The position numbers were made by a program, and so were the translations under genes. A DNA stretch of 64,000 nucleotides from positions 10,045-74,044 of the forward strand of contig JAAYZR010000009.1 of assembly GCA_012514745.1 (NCBI GenBank), read 5' to 3'. Below are positions 15,960 through 48,677 of this stretch, one piece after another (position 1 is the stretch's first letter; each line of letters begins with the position of its first letter). Below the pieces are notes generated by a model that worked only from the letters and a program-made list of their open reading frames with translations, was not told the origin of the DNA and searched no databases. Origin of the DNA: Candidatus Undivivens industriae (GTDB lineage: Bacteria > Omnitrophota > Gorgyraeia > Gygaellales > Profunditerraquicolaceae).

Positions 15960-15983
15960 TAGTTAACGGTGAATTGCCTGGAA

Positions 15984-16015
15984 GGACCGTTTATCTATTC
16001 AAACGGCCTTTTTTG
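15984..16015 (+). terminator. Rho-independent terminator-like hairpin after the ferritin-like gene.
   Basis: GGACCGTTT-atctattc-AAACGGCCT followed by TTTTTT. Confidence 0.5.
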
Positions 16016-22447: not shown

Positions 22448-22464
22448 GAATTTGATCTCTTCCC

Positions 22465-22483
22465 CCGGAAATCCCCGGGTTTT
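22465..22483 (+). terminator. Short GC hairpin plus T-run after the methyltransferase gene (weak terminator).
   Basis: CCCGG-aatcc-CCGGG followed by TTTT. Confidence 0.35.
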
Positions 22484-22493
22484 AGGCCGGGTG

Positions 22494-22609
22494 TACCTTA
22501 GCCAATCGGAGTAACACCCTGCCTTTGTGGGATAACACCTTGCCCTTATGGGGAATTGGGCAAGTGTTCCCTTGTGGGAAAGTATACATCGCTGTGTTAT
22601 ACCTTAGCC
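22494..22609. repeat. Cluster of short related repeats, including the right copy of the 33-bp inverted repeat (22564-22596).
   Basis: Three ~20-bp units (AACACCCTGCCTTTGTGGGA, AACACCTTGCCCTTATGGGG, CAAGTGTTCCCTTGTGGGAA) plus two copies of TACCTTAGCCAA at 22494-22507 and 22597-22609. Confidence 0.85.
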
Positions 22610-22627
22610 AAGTTGAATACTCATCAA

Positions 22628-22727
22628 GTTACCATACAATACTTGAAATTCTATCAATCGTATGGTAACTTTTTATTTGACATCAGTTACCATACAAGAT
22701 ATGCTATTTAGTAGTTTGTATGGTAAC
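22628..22727 (+). promoter_or_regulatory. Two palindromic operators (12-bp arms GTTACCATACAA / TTGTATGGTAAC, 18-bp spacers) with a sigma70-like promoter TTGACA-17-TATGCT embedded in the second.
   Basis: Arms at 22628-22639, 22658-22669 (one mismatch), 22686-22697 and 22716-22727. -35 at 22677-22682, -10 at 22700-22705. Confidence 0.6.
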
Positions 22728-22752
22728 TATTTAACCTTACGGAGAGTTTGAC

Positions 22753-24711: not shown

Positions 24712-24862
24712 TAATCCGCCATCCCTATGATCGTATTGAGAAGCTCGGTCAGAGGGATTTTTTATGCGGCGATTTTTAGTATTCTGCGGGCACCCGGGAG
24801 GGTCAGAAAAAGGCTGGCCGGAAAGTCCGTGGTTTGGATTCCTTTAGCCAAAGCCACATTTT

Positions 24863-24926
24863 GATGGACATGGATGGACACGTAAATGTCCACTAAATCG
24901 AAATGTCTCATAAATAGTGGACATTT
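24863..24926 (+). promoter_or_regulatory. Operator-like region upstream of DUF6088-fic.
   Basis: Inverted repeat AAATGTCCACTA-N19-TAGTGGACATTT, plus tandem GATGGACA copies. A second inverted repeat TGTCAGAA-N14-TTCTGACA overlaps a TATATTAT -10-like element at 24990-25017. Confidence 0.45.
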
Positions 24927-25034
24927 CCGACCAGTGAACATTTTGGGGGCGAATTATGACACTGGAACTTAGAAATAGCTTTACTTTGTGTCAGAAGTGC
25001 GATATATTATTTCTGACATTAAAAAGAGATATAT

Positions 25035-33993: not shown

Positions 33994-34056
33994 TGTTAGA
34001 TATTCTAACAAAATTTGTTAATTTATCTTGACAAGATTGTTAGAATGTGTTACTAT
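33994..34056 (+). promoter_or_regulatory. Promoter TTGACA-17-TACTAT with five TGTTA/TAACA repeats, including the perfect palindrome TGTTAGA-tat-TCTAACA. Putative operator of the MerR/HspR-like regulator.
   Basis: Palindrome at 33994-34010; -35 at 34028-34033; -10 at 34051-34056. Does not match the actinobacterial HAIR consensus. Confidence 0.45.
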
Positions 34057-34092
34057 TTTTCTAAATCCGGGTAACAGCAGGGAGGGAGCATC

Positions 34093-34368
34093 ATGCCGGT
34101 GTTTAAGGTGCGTATACGGCCGGAAGAACCAGTATATATCATCAGCGTGGTCAGCAGGCTGGTCGGTATCCCTGTCTGGACATTACGCCAGCTCGATAAA
34201 GCGGGTATTGTTTCTCCAAAACGCCAGGGAAAGAAATCCAGGTTATACTGTCAAAAGGATATAGAGCGGTTGGAATACATTCATTTTTTGATGGAAGAAA
34301 AGCGCGTTAATATCAGCGGGATCCGCATCATACTGCAGATGAATAATAAGGAAAGCAGAGCAAAATAA
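34093..34368 (+). CDS. MerR-family heat-shock regulator (HspR-like).
   Basis: MerR HTH IISVVSRLVGIPVWTLRQLDKAGIVSP; located immediately upstream of clpB as hspR typically is. Confidence 0.6.
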   Translation: MPVFKVRIRPEEPVYIISVVSRLVGIPVWTLRQLDKAGIVSPKRQGKKSRLYCQKDIERLEYIHFLMEEKRVNISGIRIILQMNNKESRAK

Positions 34369-34450: not shown

Positions 34451-37024
34451 ATGGATATAAACAAATTCACGGTTAAGTTCCAGGAGGCTTTACAATCTGC
34501 CGCCGCTTTCGCCCAGGAGCATTCGCATCAGCAGGTAGAACCTGAACATCTGCTGCTGGCCGTATTACGCCAGGATGACAGTCTGCTTTTGGAGATACTG
34601 GATAAGGCCGGGGTTCCGAGTTTTGAGGTCATCAAATCCCTGGAGAAACATTTGAAGGAACAGCCGCGCGTGAGCGGAGTTTCCAAAGATGTTTATTTTT
34701 CCCAGCGCGCGGCTGCTGCTCTCAAGGCCGCGGTAAAAGAGGCCGGGGCGTTGAAAGATGAGTTTGTCTCCGGGGAGCATTTTCTTCTGGCTTTACTGGA
34801 GCACGGAGGCTCGCAGCTTACACGTGAATTCCATTCTCTCGGTTTGACCCGGGATAAGGTATTGCAGGCGATGCGGGAGGTGCGCGGCAGCCGGCGCATC
34901 ACCGACCAGGATCCCGAGGCTTCTTTCGGGGCTTTGGAAAAATACGGGCAGGACCTTACTGCATTGGCCTCCAAGATGAAACTCGATCCGGTGATCGGCA
35001 GGGACGGCGAGATACGCAGGTTGATGCAGGTGCTTTCCCGCCGCACCAAGAACAATCCGGTGCTGATCGGGGAAGCAGGCGTGGGCAAGACCGCCATTGT
35101 GGAGGGTCTGGCCCTGCGCGTGGTCTCCGGTGACGTCCCCGAGGGGCTGAAAGACAAGCGCATCATCTCCCTGGATATGGGAAGCCTGGTAGCGGGCGCC
35201 AAGTTCAGGGGCGATTTCGAGAACAGGCTCAAGGCCTTGCTGAAAGAAGTGCGCGACAGCGACGGCCGTATCATACTTTTCATAGACGAATTACACACCA
35301 TCGTGGGCGCCGGAGCCGCCGAGGGCTCGATAGACGCCTCCAATATGCTCAAGCCGCTGCTTGCCAGGGGCCAGCTTCGTTGTATCGGGGCCACTACCCT
35401 CGAGGAATACCGCAAGTATATAGAGAAGGACAGCGCTTTGGAACGCAGGTTTCAGCCGGTTTTCGTGGGAGAGCCGACCGTAGAAGACACGATTTCCATC
35501 CTGCGCGGGCTGAAGGAAAAATACGAGATACACCACGGGGTGCGCATCAAGGATTCCGCTTTGATCGCCGCAGCTTCGCTTTCTGCGCGCTACATAACCG
35601 ACCGTCGTCTGCCCGACAAGGCCATCGATCTGGTGGATGAGGCGGCGTCGCGCCTGCGCATAGAGATAGACAGTATGCCGCAGGAGGTGGATTCGGTTCA
35701 GCGTCGCATTATGCAGATGGAGATAGAGAAACAGGCTTTGAAGAAGGAGAAAGACGCCTCCTCCACTGAACGCCTGGGAAAGCTCGAGGCGCAGCTGGAG
35801 GGATTGAAACGCGACCTCGGCGAAAAGAAGAAACAATGGGAGGAAGAGAAGCGGGTTATCCAGAGCATCCAGCAGATAAAAGAGAAGATACAGGATGCCA
35901 AGAACGAGGCTTCGGCGGCCGAGAAGGTCGGGAACCTGGACAAGGTGGCGGAGATACGCTACGGCGTGCTGATAGAGCTTGATAAAGAGATGAAAAAACG
36001 CAACCAGGAACTGGCTGCCTTGCAAAAACACAGCCTGATGCTCAAAGAAGAGGTTGGCGACGAAGATATCGCGCGGGTGGTCGGAGAATGGACCGGCATT
36101 CCAGTCTCCAACCTTATGGAGGGTGACACCGAGAAACTGTTGAAGATGGAAGAGCGCCTGAAGAGCAGGGTCATCGGCCAGGACCAGGCGATAGAGGAGA
36201 TATCGGCTTGCGTGCGCCGCGCCCGTTCCGGACTGGGCGACGAAAAGCGTCCGCTGGGGTCGTTCATCTTTCTGGGGCCGACCGGAGTGGGAAAGACCAA
36301 GCTGGCCAAGACGCTGGCCTGGTTTCTTTTCGACGACGAGGACGCGCTGGTGCGCATAGATATGTCCGAATATATGGAGAAGTTCAGCGTCTCGAGGCTG
36401 ATCGGCGCGCCGCCGGGATACGTGGGCTATGAGGAAGGCGGACAGTTGAGCGAAAAGGTGCGGCGCAGACCGTATTCGGTCATACTGCTGGATGAGATAG
36501 AGAAGGCGCATCCCGACGTCTTTAACGTGCTGCTGCAGATACTGGACGACGGCCGCCTTACCGACGGCCAGGGGCGCACCGTGAATTTTAAGAACACGGT
36601 GATCATAATGACCTCCAATATCGGGCAGGATATACTGCAGAGCGGGGCTCCGAAGGAGCGCCTGATGGCGGAAGTGAAGAAGATATTCAAACCGGAGTTC
36701 ATCAACCGTCTGGATGACATAATCATCTTTAACCCGCTGGACAAGGCGGAGATCGCGCGCATCCTGGATCTGGAGACGGCTCCGCTGAAAGAAAAGCTGG
36801 AGGCCAGAAAAGTTACATTGGAGCTGACGCAAAAGGCCCGCGATTTTCTGCTGGAAAAAGGCTTCGATTCCCAGTACGGGGCGCGCCCGTTGAAACGCAC
36901 CGTCCAGCATTATCTGCAGGACCCGCTGGCGATAATGCTTTTGCAAGGAAAGCTCGCGCAGGGCGATAAGGTCAAAGCTGATCATCCCGCTAATAGCGAC
37001 GGCATTTCGTTGACAAAGCGGTAA
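34451..37024 (+). CDS. clpB: ATP-dependent chaperone ClpB.
   Basis: Two AAA+ modules ([17 protein letters not shown]), long middle coiled-coil, Clp N-domain. Confidence 0.95.
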
Positions 37025-37083
37025 GCTGTGTTAAAATTAAAGTTCCCGCGAAAGAGTTTCCTGCGAAAAAGGGAGAGAATATC

Positions 37084-37818
37084 GTGAAGACGGTTGATCA
37101 TGACGCAAGGCGTAAAGCGGTATTGAGTTCCGCCATCAATTTTTATATCAGGGAGGCGGAACCGGTGGCTTCGGGCGACCTTTCAGCCGAATTCGATCTT
37201 AGCCCGGCCACCATCCGGAATATCTTCGCCGAGCTGGAAGAAGCGGGATACCTCACGCATCCGCATACCTCTGCCGGCCGTATGCCGACCGACAAGGGCT
37301 ATCGTTACTACGTGGATTTCCTGCTTTCTCAGCTGGAACTGATAGAGGAAGAAAAGGCGCGCATATTCGGCGCCTACGAACGCGGTTCCGAGACGCTGGA
37401 CGCCGTACTGGAGAAGACTTCCGACTTGCTGTCCGAGGTCACCCACTGCGCAGGTATCGCCGCCCTGCCGGACATGGACGAAAGATTCGTTTACCGCGGA
37501 GTGCGTTACATAATCGAACAGCCGGAGTTCCGGGATGCCTCAAGTATCCGTTTTCTGATCCGGCTGATCGAGGAGAAGCGGTTGCTGCTGGAGATCATCC
37601 GCAAACACAACAGCCGCAAAGTGGCGGTTTATATAGGAGAGGAACTCGGCTGCGAAGGCACCGAGAACTGCGCTATCCTGATATCTTCCTATAACGTTAA
37701 GGAGCAGCCGGTCGGCAGGCTGGCGGTGCTGGGACCGCGGAGAATGGAATATAGTCATGTTATCCCGGCGCTGGAGTATGTTTCCGAGGTGCTTTCGGAA
37801 GTGCTGAGTGACATATAA
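37084..37818 (+). CDS. hrcA: Heat-inducible transcription repressor HrcA (short form, GTG start).
   Basis: N-terminal winged helix AVLSSAINFYIREAEPVASGDLS... typical of HrcA. Confidence 0.8.
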   Translation: MKTVDHDARRKAVLSSAINFYIREAEPVASGDLSAEFDLSPATIRNIFAELEEAGYLTHPHTSAGRMPTDKGYRYYVDFLLSQLELIEEEKARIFGAYERGSETLDAVLEKTSDLLSEVTHCAGIAALPDMDERFVYRGVRYIIEQPEFRDASSIRFLIRLIEEKRLLLEIIRKHNSRKVAVYIGEELGCEGTENCAILISSYNVKEQPVGRLAVLGPRRMEYSHVIPALEYVSEVLSEVLSDI

Positions 37819-37878: not shown

Positions 37879-38502
37879 ATGAACAATAAAGAGAATCACA
37901 ATAAGAAGAGCGGTGCTAAGGAATCAGAGATAAAAGAAGAAAAGCCGCAAGCCGGGGTTTCTCCAGACGGAGTATGTTCGACGGATAAAGAAGTCAGCGT
38001 TAAGGAATCGGAACTACGGAAGCTGAAAGAGGATGCCGCCAAGGCCGCCGAATACTGGGAGAGGCTGCTGCGCCAGCAGGCGGAATTCGAGAATATCCGC
38101 AAGCGTATGGAACGCGAAAGACAGGATTTTCTGAAATTCGCGAATGAGGGCTTGATCGACGAACTGCTGGACGTGCTCGACGATCTCGAGCGCACGGTGG
38201 GCCTGGCGGAAAATAATTGCCGGGACGTGTCTGTTTTTCTGAAAGGTGTTGAAATGATACTGGCGCATCTTTACGAACTGCTGAAGCGCCACGGTGTCAA
38301 GCCGCTGGAAGCGTCCGGCAAGCAGTTTGATCCTCATTACCATGAGGCATTGATGCAGTGTGATGATGCGTCAGTGCCAGAGCACACGGTGCTGGAGGAA
38401 ATGCAAAAAGGGTATCTTTTGCACGACCGGGTCTTACGCACGGCGAAGGTGAAAGTATCGAAAAAGCCTTGCGAGCCGCCGCAGACCGAAAAGCAATCTT
38501 AA
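37879..38502 (+). CDS. grpE: Nucleotide exchange factor GrpE.
   Basis: Coiled-coil N-terminus and the conserved C-terminal segment HEALMQ...VLEEMQKGYLLHDRVLRTAKV. Confidence 0.85.
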   Translation: MNNKENHNKKSGAKESEIKEEKPQAGVSPDGVCSTDKEVSVKESELRKLKEDAAKAAEYWERLLRQQAEFENIRKRMERERQDFLKFANEGLIDELLDVLDDLERTVGLAENNCRDVSVFLKGVEMILAHLYELLKRHGVKPLEASGKQFDPHYHEALMQCDDASVPEHTVLEEMQKGYLLHDRVLRTAKVKVSKKPCEPPQTEKQS

Positions 38503-38505
38503 GCC

Positions 38506-38765
38506 GGGTAAATTTAACTTCGTGAATGTTTTAAGTATTGCCCTGATCCTGCGAAACAGGATCAGGGTAACCCGACAAGCGCTCGAAAATCTCCCCTGGG
38601 GGAGAGATTTTTTCGGTCGGCCCTGCGGGTAAATTTAACTTCGTGAATGTTTTAAGTATTGCCCTGATCCTACGAAACAGGATCAGGGTAACCCGACAAG
38701 CGCTCGAAAATCTCCCCTGGGGGAGAGATTTTCTCGGTCGGCCCTGCGGGTAAATTTAACTTCGT
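38506..38765 (+). repeat. Tandem direct duplication of a 121-bp unit (2 copies plus an 18-bp third start) filling the grpE-dnaK spacer; each unit carries two hairpins, the second terminator-like.
   Basis: Units at 38506-38626 and 38627-38747, near identical. Hairpins CCCTGATCCTG-cgaaa-CAGGATCAGGG and TCTCCCC-tg-GGGGAGAG followed by a T-run. The dnaK RBS lies in the partial third copy. Confidence 0.9.
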
Positions 38766-38788
38766 TAAATTTAGTTAGGAGGTGCGAT

Positions 38789-40678
38789 ATGGCTAAAGTT
38801 ATAGGGATCGATTTAGGAACATCTAATTCTGCCGCCGCCGTTATGGAGAACGGCAGGCCGGTGATTGTCCCCTCGGCGGAAGGCGCGGGAGTCGCTTCCG
38901 GCAAGGCCTTTCCTTCCTGGGTGGCTTTTACCAAAGACGGTCAGAAGCTGGTAGGCGAGCCTGCCAGGCGCCAGGCGTCGATAAACCCGGAGGGGACGAT
39001 TTTCGCTGCCAAGCGTAAAATGGGGACCGATTTCAAATTCAAGGTAATGGATAAGGAATTCACCCCTCAGCAGGTTTCCGCTTTTATCCTGCAGAAGATA
39101 AAGCAGGACGCGGAGGCTTACCTGGGAGATAAAGTGGAGGAGGTGGTGATCACCTGCCCCGCGTATTTCAACGATAATCAGCGCACGGCTACCAAGGACG
39201 CCGGGGAGATCGCCGGCTTGAATGTGCTGCGCATTATCAATGAGCCTACCGCCGCTTGCTTGGCTTACGGCTTGGACAAGGTAGGGAAGGAATTGAAGAT
39301 CATGGTCTTCGATTTCGGCGGAGGGACGCTGGACGTTACCATTATGGAGATGTGGGCGGAAGGCGGATTCAAGGTCATGTCCACGAACGGCGACACCCAG
39401 TTGGGCGGCACGGATATGGATAACGTGTTGATAGAATACATAGCCGATCAATTCAAGAGAGAGACCGGTATAGACCTGCGCGGCGACAAGATGGCGATGC
39501 AAAGACTGCGCGAGGCGGCGGAAAAGGCCAAGGTGGAGCTTTCTTCCACCGTGCAGACGGACATCAATCTGCCGTTCATCACGGCCGACGCCTCAGGCCC
39601 CAAGCATCTGACGATGACGGTCACCCGGGCCAAGCTCGAGGACCTGATAGCGCCGATCATCGAGCGCTGCCGTAAGCCGATAGAGGAGGCTCTGAAGGAC
39701 GCGAAGCTGTCGGCCAATAATGTCGACCGCATCATCATGGTCGGCGGGCCCACCCGCATCCCGGCGGTCCAGAAATTCGTCGAGGATTTTGTGGGCAAGA
39801 AGATCGAACGCGGGGTGGACCCGATGGAATGCGTCGCGCTGGGCGCGGCCATTCAGGCCTCTATCATCAAGGGAGAGACCAAGGACGTGCTTCTTCTGGA
39901 TGTCACTCCGCTTTCTCTTGGTATCGAGACGCTGGGAGGCGTGAACACCAAGTTAATCGAGCGCAACACCACCATACCCTCTCGCAAGAGCCAGGTATTC
40001 TCTACCGCGGCGGATAACCAGACCGCGGTTACGGTGCGCGTCATACAGGGTGAGCGTCAGATAGCGGACGCCGAGGGTAACGTCGAGCTCGGCAGATTCG
40101 ACCTGATAGGGATACCTGCGGCTCCCAGAGGAGTTCCTCAGATAGAGGTCTCTTTCGACATAGACGCAAACGGTATCGTGCACGTCTCCGCCAAGGACCT
40201 CGGGACCGGGAAGGAACAGTCCATACGCATCACCGCTCCCAAGAAGCTCTCCAAGGAAGAGATAGAAAAAATGGTCAAGGAGGCGGAGAAATACGCTTCC
40301 GAGGACAGCAAGAAGAAGGAAGAGGTAGAGCTGATAAACCAGGCCGATGCCCTGGTTTATTCCACCGAGAAATCCCTTAAGGACTACGGCGACAAGATAA
40401 ACCAGCAGGAGCGGGCCGGTATAGAGACCGACCTGACCGACCTGAAACAGTCCATAAAGGACAAGAACGTCGATAAGATAAAGAAAGGGATGGAGGCGTT
40501 GACCAAGTCGGCGCATAAGCTCGCCGAGGAAGTCTATAAACAGGCGGCGGCCAAATCCCAGCAGTCCGCGGGAGAACAGGCGTCCGGCGGTGCCGGAACC
40601 GAGGGGCCCCGGGAGGAGCCGGATAAAGGTAAAGAGGAGGTCATCGACGCCGAGTATAAGGACGAGGACAAGAAATAA
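38789..40678 (+). CDS. dnaK: Molecular chaperone DnaK (Hsp70).
   Basis: [19 protein letters not shown], and the substrate-binding and lid domains. Confidence 0.95.
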
Positions 40679-40831
40679 CAGCGATATTCCTTAGTGGTTT
40701 GATCAAAGGCAGCGGCTACGATGTCCGTTCCGTCGAGCGGCAAGGGTGGCGGTCTTAAAGTTACCTTAACCGCATTCGACACGGGCTTCGTAGCCTTAGC
40801 CGTTATAAACGCTATGGCGGAAGGCGGATAG

Positions 40832-41998
40832 ATGAGCAGTAAGAAGGATTACTACGAGATACTCGGGCTTAAAAAAGGCGCAGGGGTGGATGAGATCAGG
40901 AAGTCCTACCGGGAAGCGGCCATGCGCTGTCACCCGGACCGGGTCCCCGCCGACAAGAAGAAAGAGGCGGAGGAGAATTTCAAAGAGATATCCGAGGCCT
41001 ACGCGGTGCTTTCCGACCCGCAGAAGAAACAGCTTTACGACCAGTACGGACATTCGGGTATAGACCAGAATTACGCCTACGAAGATATCTTTAAGGGCGC
41101 TGATTTCAGCAGTATCTTCCGTGATATGGGCGGCGGCGACGCAGCCTACGGGGGGAACATTTTCGACAGCATCTTCAGCGACCTCGGTTTCGATATCTTC
41201 GGCGCCGGCGAAAGCCGCAGAGGCCGCAGCCGGCGGGGCCGCGACCTGGAGATAGCCGTGGCGGTTACCCTGGAAGAGGCGTATCACGGCGTCGAGAAAC
41301 GTATAAACGTGCCGCGTTATGAATCCTGCAGGACGTGTTCCGGCAGCGGAGCCAAGCCCGGCACCAAAAAAACGGCCTGCCCGCAGTGCAAGGGCAGCGG
41401 CAGGGTAGTGACCTCCAACGGATTCTTTCAGATGGCGCAGACCTGCCATAAATGCGGAGGGCAGGGCCAGATCATTCAGACCCCTTGCCCGGATTGCGGA
41501 GGCGAGGGCAGGGTAAAGATCACCAGGCATATAACGGTCAAGATCCCGCCCGGGGTGGACAACGGTTCCACCCTGCGCATAAAAGGGGAAGGAGAGGCCG
41601 GGCAGTCCGGCAGCGGAGACCTTTATGTGGTGACAGAGATGCTTCCGCATTCTCTGTTCAGCCGTAGAGGCGCGGACATACTCAGCGAAATCGGCATCAG
41701 CCTTCCCAAAGCGGTTCTCGGAGGGGAGGCGGAGATAGATACCTTGAGCGGCAAGGTAAAGATGAAGATACCCGCCGGCACGCAGAGCGGCAGGATATTC
41801 CGTCTTAAAGGCAAGGGTATGCCCGACGTGCACGGCCGCGGGATTACCGGCGATCACCTGGTAAAGGTGGACGTTGAGATACCGCGCAGCCTGAATTCCG
41901 AACAGCGCAGAGCGATGGAAGAGTTCGCCCGCGCCTCCGGTGAATCCGGAGATTCACGGGAAAGCTTTGTGGACAAGTTCAAAAAAAGTTTCAAATAA
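40832..41998 (+). CDS. dnaJ: Chaperone DnaJ.
   Basis: J domain with HPD, G/F-rich linker, four CxxCxGxG zinc-finger repeats. Confidence 0.95.
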   Translation: MSSKKDYYEILGLKKGAGVDEIRKSYREAAMRCHPDRVPADKKKEAEENFKEISEAYAVLSDPQKKQLYDQYGHSGIDQNYAYEDIFKGADFSSIFRDMGGGDAAYGGNIFDSIFSDLGFDIFGAGESRRGRSRRGRDLEIAVAVTLEEAYHGVEKRINVPRYESCRTCSGSGAKPGTKKTACPQCKGSGRVVTSNGFFQMAQTCHKCGGQGQIIQTPCPDCGGEGRVKITRHITVKIPPGVDNGSTLRIKGEGEAGQSGSGDLYVVTEMLPHSLFSRRGADILSEIGISLPKAVLGGEAEIDTLSGKVKMKIPAGTQSGRIFRLKGKGMPDVHGRGITGDHLVKVDVEIPRSLNSEQRRAMEEFARASGESGDSRESFVDKFKKSFK

Positions 41999-48440: not shown

Positions 48441-48677
48441 CGCCCCGTTTTTCGGCCCTCTTTTAGGAACTTTCCCGCGAATACGATTGTTCATCATCCG
48501 GCGGCATCAAAGAGGCCGCGCTCGGTGCTTATCGCGGGGCCCTCGACGGTCTTGCCGAAGGAAGCATTTTTTTATCAAGGATAAAAGCCGGGGCCCGGGA
48601 AAATAAAAGCGGCGGGCTCATCCTTGAAAGAACTGTGGGCATTTCTTCAAATCCGGCTTTCTAAATCCCGTCTCAGA

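Follow-up and report, generated by a model that had tools for sequence, protein, structure and literature searches.

A tandem, copy-variable terminator-like unit and a structured dnaK leader between grpE and dnaK of an Omnitrophota bacterium

The stoichiometry of DnaK, DnaJ and GrpE matters for protein folding, and bacteria set the ratio in several known ways. In the 64,000-nt stretch of DNA analysed here (the window), from an Omnitrophota bacterium, the 286-nt spacer between grpE and dnaK (38503–38788) contains two near-identical, terminator-like units arranged head to tail. The locus raises the question of whether the array influences how much transcription passes from grpE into dnaK, or whether it is a duplication without consequence for the chaperone genes on either side.

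The 121-nt unit in the heat-shock cluster

The features of the locus are collected in Table 1. Tandem Repeats Finder reports a head-to-tail repeat with a period of 121 nt at 38505–38765 (2.2 copies, or 2.16 unrounded; 98% matches). The two complete units are 98% identical and differ at exactly two positions, G/A at 38551/38672 and T/C at 38612/38733, matching the preliminary description, which had counted about two differences between near-identical 121-bp units; a repeat search places a third start at 38747–38768. The first substitution lies at the top of hairpin 1 and is the CTG versus CTA difference noted before. The second had been given as TTTTTT versus TTTCTC after hairpin 2; it does fall in the T-run, but the two forms are really TTTTTTC and TTTTCTC, separated by one substitution. 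Each unit begins with 19 nt that copy the start of the dnaK leader and continues with a hairpin of 10–14 bp (hairpin 1) and a second hairpin made up of an A-tract, a GC stem and a T-run (hairpin 2), with identical 19-mers beginning at 38505, 38626 and 38747.

Hairpin 1 has the sequence CCCTGATCCT(G/A)CGAAACAGGATCAGGG. The 11-bp stem originally ascribed to each unit is correct for the core of unit 1 but not for that of unit 2, which has 10 bp; the cores can be extended to 14 and 13 bp, respectively. Hairpin 2 reads AAAATCTCCCC-TGG-GGGAGAGATTTT, followed by T-rich sequence (its arms can also be written TCTCCCC-TGG-GGGAGAGA), and its first copy starts 84 nt past the grpE stop codon on the + strand, the strand of grpE. 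An intrinsic terminator consists of a G+C-containing stem-loop followed immediately by a U-run on the transcribed strand, and hairpin 2 has both elements. The pairing of a hairpin with a terminator-like GC stem and U-run in every unit, as first described, thus holds on the + strand within the heat-shock cluster, and RNA folding, proposed as a check, predicts both hairpins to be stable (Table 1).

Across sequence variants the stability of hairpin 2 ranges from −11 to −20 kcal/mol. It is comparable to that of the hairpin-plus-T6–7 terminators at gene ends in the window (24722–24763, 15980–16015 and 48526–48572), which were found by direct inspection of intergenic regions; a scan with loose criteria returned too many intragenic matches. 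The T-run of hairpin 2 is shorter than in these gene-end terminators, and most units of all related loci carry the form TTTTCTC. A T-run that is both short and interrupted suggests that hairpin 2 is a partial terminator. No convincing antiterminator pairing was seen between hairpin 1 and the terminator. A coding role for the unit was rejected, as the 36-codon GTG frame that it contains is not conserved, being broken by stops in one related locus (L011); no Shine–Dalgarno sequence precedes this frame.

Palindromes also occur elsewhere in the window. In a 305-nt intergenic region (22448–22752), GTTACCATACAA...TTGTATGGTAAC forms the basis of two long palindromes, and at 24712–25034 a canonical terminator (24722–24763) is followed by a spacer with several GGACA(T/C)...TGTCC palindromes.

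Table 1. Positions of the genes, promoter elements, repeat units and hairpins of the heat-shock cluster in the window.
Feature	Position	Strand	Details
merR-like gene	34093–34368	+	91 aa; first of the cluster as listed
CIRCE-like operator TTAGCACTC-N9-GATTGCTAA	34402–34428	+	upstream of clpB; read from sequence; one mismatch to consensus
clpB	34451–37024	+	CIRCE-like site in front
sigma-70-type promoter TTGACA-16-TAAAAT with upstream TG	37010–37037	+	promoter scan, 11/12 matches
hrcA-like gene	37084–37818	+	short, 244 aa; DeoR-like HTH and HrcA C-terminal domain
grpE	37879–38502	+	207 aa; Pfam GrpE E = 6e-51; stop TAA 38500–38502; upstream of array
Repeat unit 1	38505–38625	+	121 nt; Tandem Repeats Finder and repeat search; covariance model R1 160.6 bits
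Direct repeat copy 1, CGGGTAAATTTAACTTCGT	38505–38523	+	copies 5' strand of dnaK leader hairpin
Hairpin 1, unit 1	38538–38570	+	core stem 38541–38551/38557–38567, loop CGAAA; −24.0 kcal/mol predicted
Hairpin 2, unit 1	38586–38614	+	A-tract, GC stem with bulged A, TTTTTTC; −12.8 to −13.1 kcal/mol predicted
Repeat unit 2	38626–38746	+	121 nt; R1 160 bits; set apart from unit 1 by A at 38672 and C at 38733
Hairpin 1, unit 2	38659–38691	+	10-bp core, loop ACGAAAC; −20.8 kcal/mol predicted
Hairpin 2, unit 2	38707–38735	+	T-run TTTTCTC; terminator scan and folding
dnaK leader	38742–38788	+	CCCTGCGG (38742–38749), 10-bp AU-rich hairpin (38751–38773), AGGAGG (38777–38782); includes partial third copy 38747–38765
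dnaK	38789–40678	+	629 aa; Pfam HSP70 E = 1e-224; ATG 38789; downstream of array
dnaJ	40832–41998	+	3' of dnaK

The array lies in a heat-shock cluster with the order clpB–hrcA–grpE–(array)–dnaK–dnaJ, all on the + strand. The promoter scan found canonical TTGACA/TAnnAT promoters in front of hrcA and of the merR-like gene, and the one in front of the hrcA-like gene (37010–37037) is the nearest good sigma-70-type promoter 5' of the array. Between grpE and dnaK, including the stretch from the last T-run to dnaK, the consensus scan for sigma-70 sites found none, and in our own reading of the sequence there was no convincing sigma-32, sigma-54 or ECF-type motif. CIRCE is an inverted repeat with the consensus TTAGCACTC-N9-GAGTGCTAA. 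The CIRCE-like site in front of clpB possibly places transcription entering the cluster under heat control; no CIRCE was found in the hrcA-like gene's own near-consensus promoter region (37010–37083). The sequence TAAATTTAA was considered as an archaeal TATA box and rejected, as the cluster is bacterial (hrcA-like gene, CIRCE-like site, sigma-70 promoters) and the bins are from Omnitrophota.

Several further observations concern the surroundings of the array. The promoter region of the merR-like gene (33995–34060) contains the palindrome TAACAAA-A-TTTGTTA, probably that gene's operator, and further TTGTTAGAA-type repeats around a TTGACA-17-TACTAT promoter. Across the window (1–64000), 58 of the 60 crude gene calls fall on the + strand, and neither tRNAs nor Rfam families were detected in its 64 kb. 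The dnaK–dnaJ spacer (40679–40831, 153 nt) is nearly as structured as the grpE–dnaK spacer (predicted −0.40 kcal/mol per nt), and a minus-strand open reading frame (38683–38934) overlaps the start of dnaK.

Copy number, constraint and distribution of the unit

The number of units differs between assemblies of closely related strains. Where GrpE is 100% identical to that of the window, one unit is present in L003 and L010, two are present in the window itself and in L001, L002, L004 and L005, and at least three in L008, which runs into a third full unit before its contig ends. L013 (GrpE 99.5% identical) has a 735-nt spacer with about six units of three sequence variants, one unit being truncated at its 5' end. 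The 106-nt spacer of L014 (96.6%) retains the terminator half and the leader only, without the 5' region of the unit (the direct repeat) and hairpin 1; L011 and L015 (93%) have at least two units, and L012 (grpE DNA 89.6% identical) has one. Head-to-tail units that differ in number between strains make the array a minisatellite or VNTR, with the proviso that assemblies may miscount repeats: the copy numbers come from short-read-type assemblies, which can collapse or miscount tandem repeats, and the true number may be underestimated. The differences fit an array that has lately been gaining and losing units and still does, or one whose units evolve in concert. They agree with the earlier view of the near-identity of the units as a sign of recent duplication or concerted evolution, since assemblies whose GrpE is identical or nearly so differ in the number of units. 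Within the clade it is the single unit that is conserved, not the duplication.

The repeat also marks the points at which contigs end. Three contigs with identical GrpE stop inside the array (L006, L007 and L009), and the ends of L006 and L094, which fall about 30–38 nt into the repeat, are read as assembly-graph breaks at the repeat rather than as transcript ends, an assembly k-mer of about 31 being assumed. In the species-representative bin, the second unit (L011:1850–1948) is interrupted by about 100 N exactly in the repeat, which would be a scaffold gap or masking. For users of metagenomes the practical point is that several assemblies have contigs broken by the array at just this place, between grpE and dnaK.

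Comparison with relatives whose grpE DNA is about 90% identical shows strong purifying selection on the grpE–dnaK spacer. The grpE DNA of L012 is 89.6% identical to that of the window and has changed at 24.5% of third codon positions, compared with 9 changes in the 163 nt of the unit and leader (binomial P ~1e-10) and none in the 73 nt from the right arm of the terminator to the ATG (P ~1e-9); L014 differs from the window at 3 of 100 nt (P ~2e-6). The same 73 nt are identical in the window, L011, L012, L013 and L014. Unpaired segments are constrained as well: the 18-nt linker has changed once, and the 29 nt that run from the terminator loop to the end of the unit have not changed. Such broad conservation of the unpaired linker and tail suggests that the unit does more than form simple hairpins.

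Substitutions within the stems leave the fold intact. One pair in the stem of hairpin 1 passes from C–G to U–G (unit 2 of L001) and to U–A (L003, L008, L011 and L012), in relatives, C has become U at three places in the left arm of the terminator, where it faces G or the bulged A, and in unit 1 of L013 a 1-nt insertion removes the bulge, giving a perfect stem of 13 bp (−20.2 kcal/mol). Because U–G pairs work only in + sense RNA, these changes keep pairing in the RNA of the + strand only. Covariation within the unit is thin, comprising very few events and one compensated pair among close relatives, for which shuffle controls were only marginal; all the changes agree in direction.

The unit is specific to this locus. 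The exact pattern of hairpin 1 occurs at two loci among 185,579 species genomes, and since both are grpE–dnaK spacers of Candidatus Omnitrophota bins (L011 and L012), the element is not a dispersed repeat. Covariance model R1, which describes the unit, has matches only in a clade with at least 93% GrpE identity and none outside the grpE–dnaK spacer in 413 kb of related loci; the 64-kb window holds no further copy, and three motif searches gave no match in 100 shuffles. The proposed search for the unit elsewhere therefore finds it at the grpE–dnaK spacer only, including that of relatives in the narrow clade. Uniform transcript coverage together with absence from every relative had been named as the outcome that would make the array a neutral duplication; the unit is conserved in related species, so the duplication is not a neutral one-off. 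A dispersed or mobile element (REP/BIME, MIRU or MITE-like) was rejected, there being no copies at other loci in the 64-kb window, the species genomes or the related loci. A known RNA family was likewise rejected, as Rfam 15 gave no match at the gathering threshold in the window (the best sub-threshold match was BTE, with 20 bits against a threshold of 45). An 18-nt core of the repeat has six matches in viral contigs, which are attributed to chance because their flanks are unrelated, and the terminator-tail pattern has no match in viral sequences.

The dnaK leader and its counterparts in relatives

The preliminary description had a third copy of the unit beginning and then becoming the ribosome-binding site (RBS) of dnaK. 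The 19 nt in common (38747–38765) are there, but they read not as a decaying repeat but as part of the dnaK leader hairpin, the 5' strand of which is copied by the first 19–28 nt of the unit. In L011 and L012 the stretch common to the unit start and the leader grows to 24–28 nt and includes CCCTGCGGG. The leader hairpin is a perfect 10-bp inverted repeat, TAAATTTAAC-N3-GTTAAATTTA, of a kind that appeared in none of 100 shuffles, and it ends 3 nt 5' of AGGAGG. This dnaK-proximal repeat does not fit CIRCE, and the CIRCE-like site upstream of clpB is the only one. Four of the six Shine–Dalgarno bases are predicted to pair with CCCU/C bases upstream, and the pairing probability in silico is still above 0.75 at 60 °C; the fold of the leader is not significantly better than that of shuffled sequences (z = −1.4).

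RNA thermometers, in which a weak helix holds the RBS and opens within the physiological temperature range, are known from heat-shock leaders and include ROSE, fourU and the ibpA–ibpB intergenic thermometer. The dnaK leader resembles them in its AU-rich imperfect helix at or overlapping the RBS of a heat-shock gene (38742–38786). It differs in that it matches no Rfam thermometer, in that the predicted pairing stays closed up to 60 °C and in that the corresponding hairpin of relatives stops just before the RBS and does not cover it.

Eighty related loci recovered with GrpE served as the relatives compared for spacer layout. In those with 60–75% GrpE identity, grpE and dnaK overlap or lie within about 45 nt of each other in 31 distinct spacers, and in six other relatives a two-hairpin leader starts about 10–25 nt past the grpE stop (L043:3490–3584, L072:2166–2260, L079:3502–3596, L037:3523–3613, L025:2966–3059 and L050:3556–3648). 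Both arrangements indicate that co-transcription of grpE and dnaK is ancestral. The two-hairpin leader is built of an outer (G/A)UCCC...GGGA(C/U) hairpin followed by an AAAUUU-type hairpin flush with GGAGG. Compensatory changes are present in 8 of its 21 pairs, a number reached in 0 of 500 shuffles; slid controls gave at most 4. The arms of the second hairpin are 3, 11 or 16 nt apart in these relatives, and such varying spacing points to an RNA hairpin rather than a protein operator.

Covariance model R2, made from the distant relatives only, matches the window at 38724–38791 with E ~0.002, part of the score coming from the conserved GGAGGTGCGATATG; the leader of the window and that of L025 have in common GGG(A)TAAATTT ... 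AAATTTAG ... GGAGGTGCGATATG. The distant relatives with a two-hairpin leader have no terminator between grpE and the leader, and by this comparison the terminator part is new to the clade of the window. A general test of relatives for a hairpin flush with the dnaK RBS gave a weak result (mean −4.8 kcal/mol, against −3.8 kcal/mol for shuffles), and the idea that such a hairpin is universal was rejected; it holds for a subset only. The two-hairpin leader directly 5' of the dnaK RBS, which has no Rfam match, may be a cis-regulatory or stabilising RNA motif of Omnitrophota that has not been described before.

Other relatives carry different sequences in the same spacer. L041 (3503–3865), and also L071, has a 120-aa gene of the 23S rRNA-intervening-sequence family (PF05635, E = 1e-26) between grpE and dnaK; in L027, L028 and L029 the roughly 100 nt upstream of dnaK consist of GTGTGTAAGT-type short repeats that fold into a hairpin of about 70 nt; and L049 and L084 have long imperfect hairpins at the same position before dnaK. 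Within the phylum, structured insertions seem to have a hot spot in the grpE–dnaK spacer.

Possible roles of the array

The reading that we favour, with a probability of about 0.5, takes the unit to be a clade-specific module of a leaky terminator and a stem-loop, amplified by recombination between leader-derived repeats. The array would then probably damp, and may tune, the transcription that reaches dnaK. The 121-nt unit would act at the RNA level, transcribed with the heat-shock cluster of the + strand: part of the transcription that starts at the hrcA promoter, and perhaps at that of clpB, would stop at each terminator, and the resulting hrcA–grpE transcripts would end in two protective 3' hairpins. 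The read-through remainder would carry the complete dnaK leader, in which the AU-rich hairpin by the RBS, possibly together with pairing of the RBS itself, would control translation or stability of the dnaK–dnaJ mRNA. The 5' strand of the leader lies only 9 nt past the last T-run, so that a leader-bearing dnaK mRNA would most simply come through the terminator. The net effect would be less transcription into dnaK–dnaJ relative to hrcA–grpE.

Under the same reading, replication slippage or unequal recombination between the 19–28-nt repeats would add or remove whole units, and the likeness of the unit starts to the sequence before dnaK would explain why 1, 2, at least 3 and about 6 copies are found in near-identical strains. 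Extra copies could be nearly neutral, or they could act as a heritable dial on read-through into dnaK–dnaJ. Six efficient terminators, as in L013, would nearly silence dnaK–dnaJ, which implies either a low efficiency per unit or a promoter of dnaK that has escaped recognition.

Such a promoter is the basis of the first of the alternatives, which are taken here in descending order of probability. The terminators would be efficient full stops that end the hrcA–grpE transcript, and dnaK–dnaJ would be transcribed from a promoter of its own, perhaps dependent on an alternative sigma factor or controlled by a repressor, within the roughly 55 perfectly conserved nucleotides that separate the last T-run from the RBS; TAAATTTAAC-N3-GTTAAATTTA would be its operator, and the copy number upstream would be irrelevant to dnaK. 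Across the clade, identity is 100% over the 73 nt that precede the ATG, a weak TAAATT hexamer resembling a −10 element is present at 38751–38756, and the tolerance of 0.5 to about 6 units is easiest to understand if dnaK is independent of read-through. However, no site passes even relaxed sigma-70 criteria; the best candidate in our own reading matches at 7 of 12 positions and has its −35 element within the T-run, and an mRNA starting there would lack the conserved 5' strand of the leader. Arm spacings of 3, 11 and 16 nt in relatives fit an RNA and not a dimeric operator, and with a leader starting about 10–25 nt past the grpE stop, relatives have little or no room for a promoter. An independent dnaK promoter is thus unlikely, though it is the most probable of the alternatives.

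The free variation in copy number among strains with 99.5–100% identical GrpE could also mean that function is limited to the terminator-proximal part beside dnaK, with the extra units forming a neutral minisatellite in which gene conversion keeps the similarity. L014, which manages without the direct repeat and hairpin 1, and the confinement of the unit to a narrow clade (at least 93% GrpE identity) would accord with this. Against it, the single unit of L012 is conserved far beyond synonymous sites, hairpin 1 included, and has a compensated stem change; moreover, any termination at the hairpin-2 sites would mean that additional copies have an effect. We regard neutrality of the extra units as quite unlikely.

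The constraint seen outside the stems (one substitution in the 18-nt linker, none in the 29 nt from loop to unit end) bears on a third alternative, and conservation of the linker and tail is what leaves room for it: each unit would yield a trans-acting small RNA of about 100 nt, from the grpE 3' UTR or from read-through, the dose of which is raised by the duplication. Such an RNA would be built from a single-stranded 5' region, hairpin 1, the linker and the terminator, an architecture like that of 3'-UTR-derived, terminator-ended small RNAs, and its 5' region, being the leader strand that pairs with the dnaK RBS region, could pair there or at similar sites. Yet neither the sigma-70 scan nor inspection found a promoter inside or between the units, no target was identified and no Rfam family matched. 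The 5' part of the unit corresponds to a leader RNA that in relatives starts about 10–25 nt past the grpE stop, L014 lacks this region and hairpin 1, so that part is dispensable, and the interval between miaA and hflX contains no hfq in this lineage (that interval only). A small RNA is therefore a rather improbable explanation.

Finally, the breaks of several contigs in the repeat and the existence of single-unit contigs might be taken to mean that assembly created the duplication, for instance by joining two strain variants of one unit end to end, but this is very hard to sustain: the same two-unit structure recurs in four other, independent assemblies (NCBI, JGI and ENA), one of them (L001) with a different SNP combination, so that recurrence and SNP-marked junctions exclude a simple artefact, L008 continues into a third unit, and a separate bin (L011) and a separate contig (L015) show at least two units.

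The favoured reading of a leaky, amplified terminator module has partial precedents. The E. coli rpsU–dnaG–rpoD operon contains an internal leaky intrinsic terminator, or attenuator. The array shares with it a coding-strand stem-loop and U-run between co-oriented genes, from which lower downstream transcription is expected, and differs in being tandem, copy-variable and coupled to a second stable hairpin and a copy of the leader. REP/BIME elements of enterobacteria, for example at malE–malF, are intercistronic stem-loops that protect the upstream mRNA and skew operon expression. They, too, are stable intercistronic hairpins, at times in arrays of variable size; REP sequences are dispersed in hundreds and alternate in orientation, whereas the unit described here occupies one locus, head to tail, with a terminator-type U-run.

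Mycobacterial MIRUs occur at about 40 loci per genome and are known for small open reading frames linked to the adjacent genes, not for terminators. The MIRU-VNTR loci of Mycobacterium tuberculosis are used for typing (PMC5056196). The array is like them in that tandem repeats of 40–120 bp lie in operon intergenic spacers and vary in copy number from strain to strain; it is unlike them in its single locus, its lack of a conserved open reading frame and its RNA hairpin content. In Bacillus subtilis, RNase Y cleavage between hrcA and grpE uncouples expression within hrcA–grpE–dnaK (PMC11313650). There, as here, an intercistronic RNA element lies in the heat-shock operon, and there it sets different levels of neighbouring genes; the difference is one of position and type, a terminator-like element between grpE and dnaK here and endonucleolytic cleavage between hrcA and grpE there. 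In the literature we found no description of a tandem, copy-variable terminator array in a dnaK operon, the processing by RNase Y in B. subtilis being the nearest case.

A more far-reaching proposal joins two claims, that the array is a heritable attenuator tunable by copy number and that the two-hairpin leader is an undescribed cis-regulatory motif; as a joint reading of the sequences it is tentative and, on balance, unlikely. If the tunable attenuator were real, each unit would remove a fixed fraction of the transcripts, and slippage between 1 and about 6 units would generate sub-populations with different ratios of DnaK and DnaJ to GrpE, a contingency-type dial in a core chaperone operon. 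If, in addition, the hairpins weaken on heating, read-through may depend on temperature, and tandem copies would sharpen the response.

The main interest of the locus lies in the copy-number polymorphism of a terminator module and in a dnaK leader supported by covariation, a structured element in an uncultured phylum that is absent from Rfam. If the favoured reading is right, a copy-variable terminator module would be an unusual and mutation-prone way of setting chaperone stoichiometry, and the array would be a natural case of the dose-wise attenuation that synthetic biologists build by hand.
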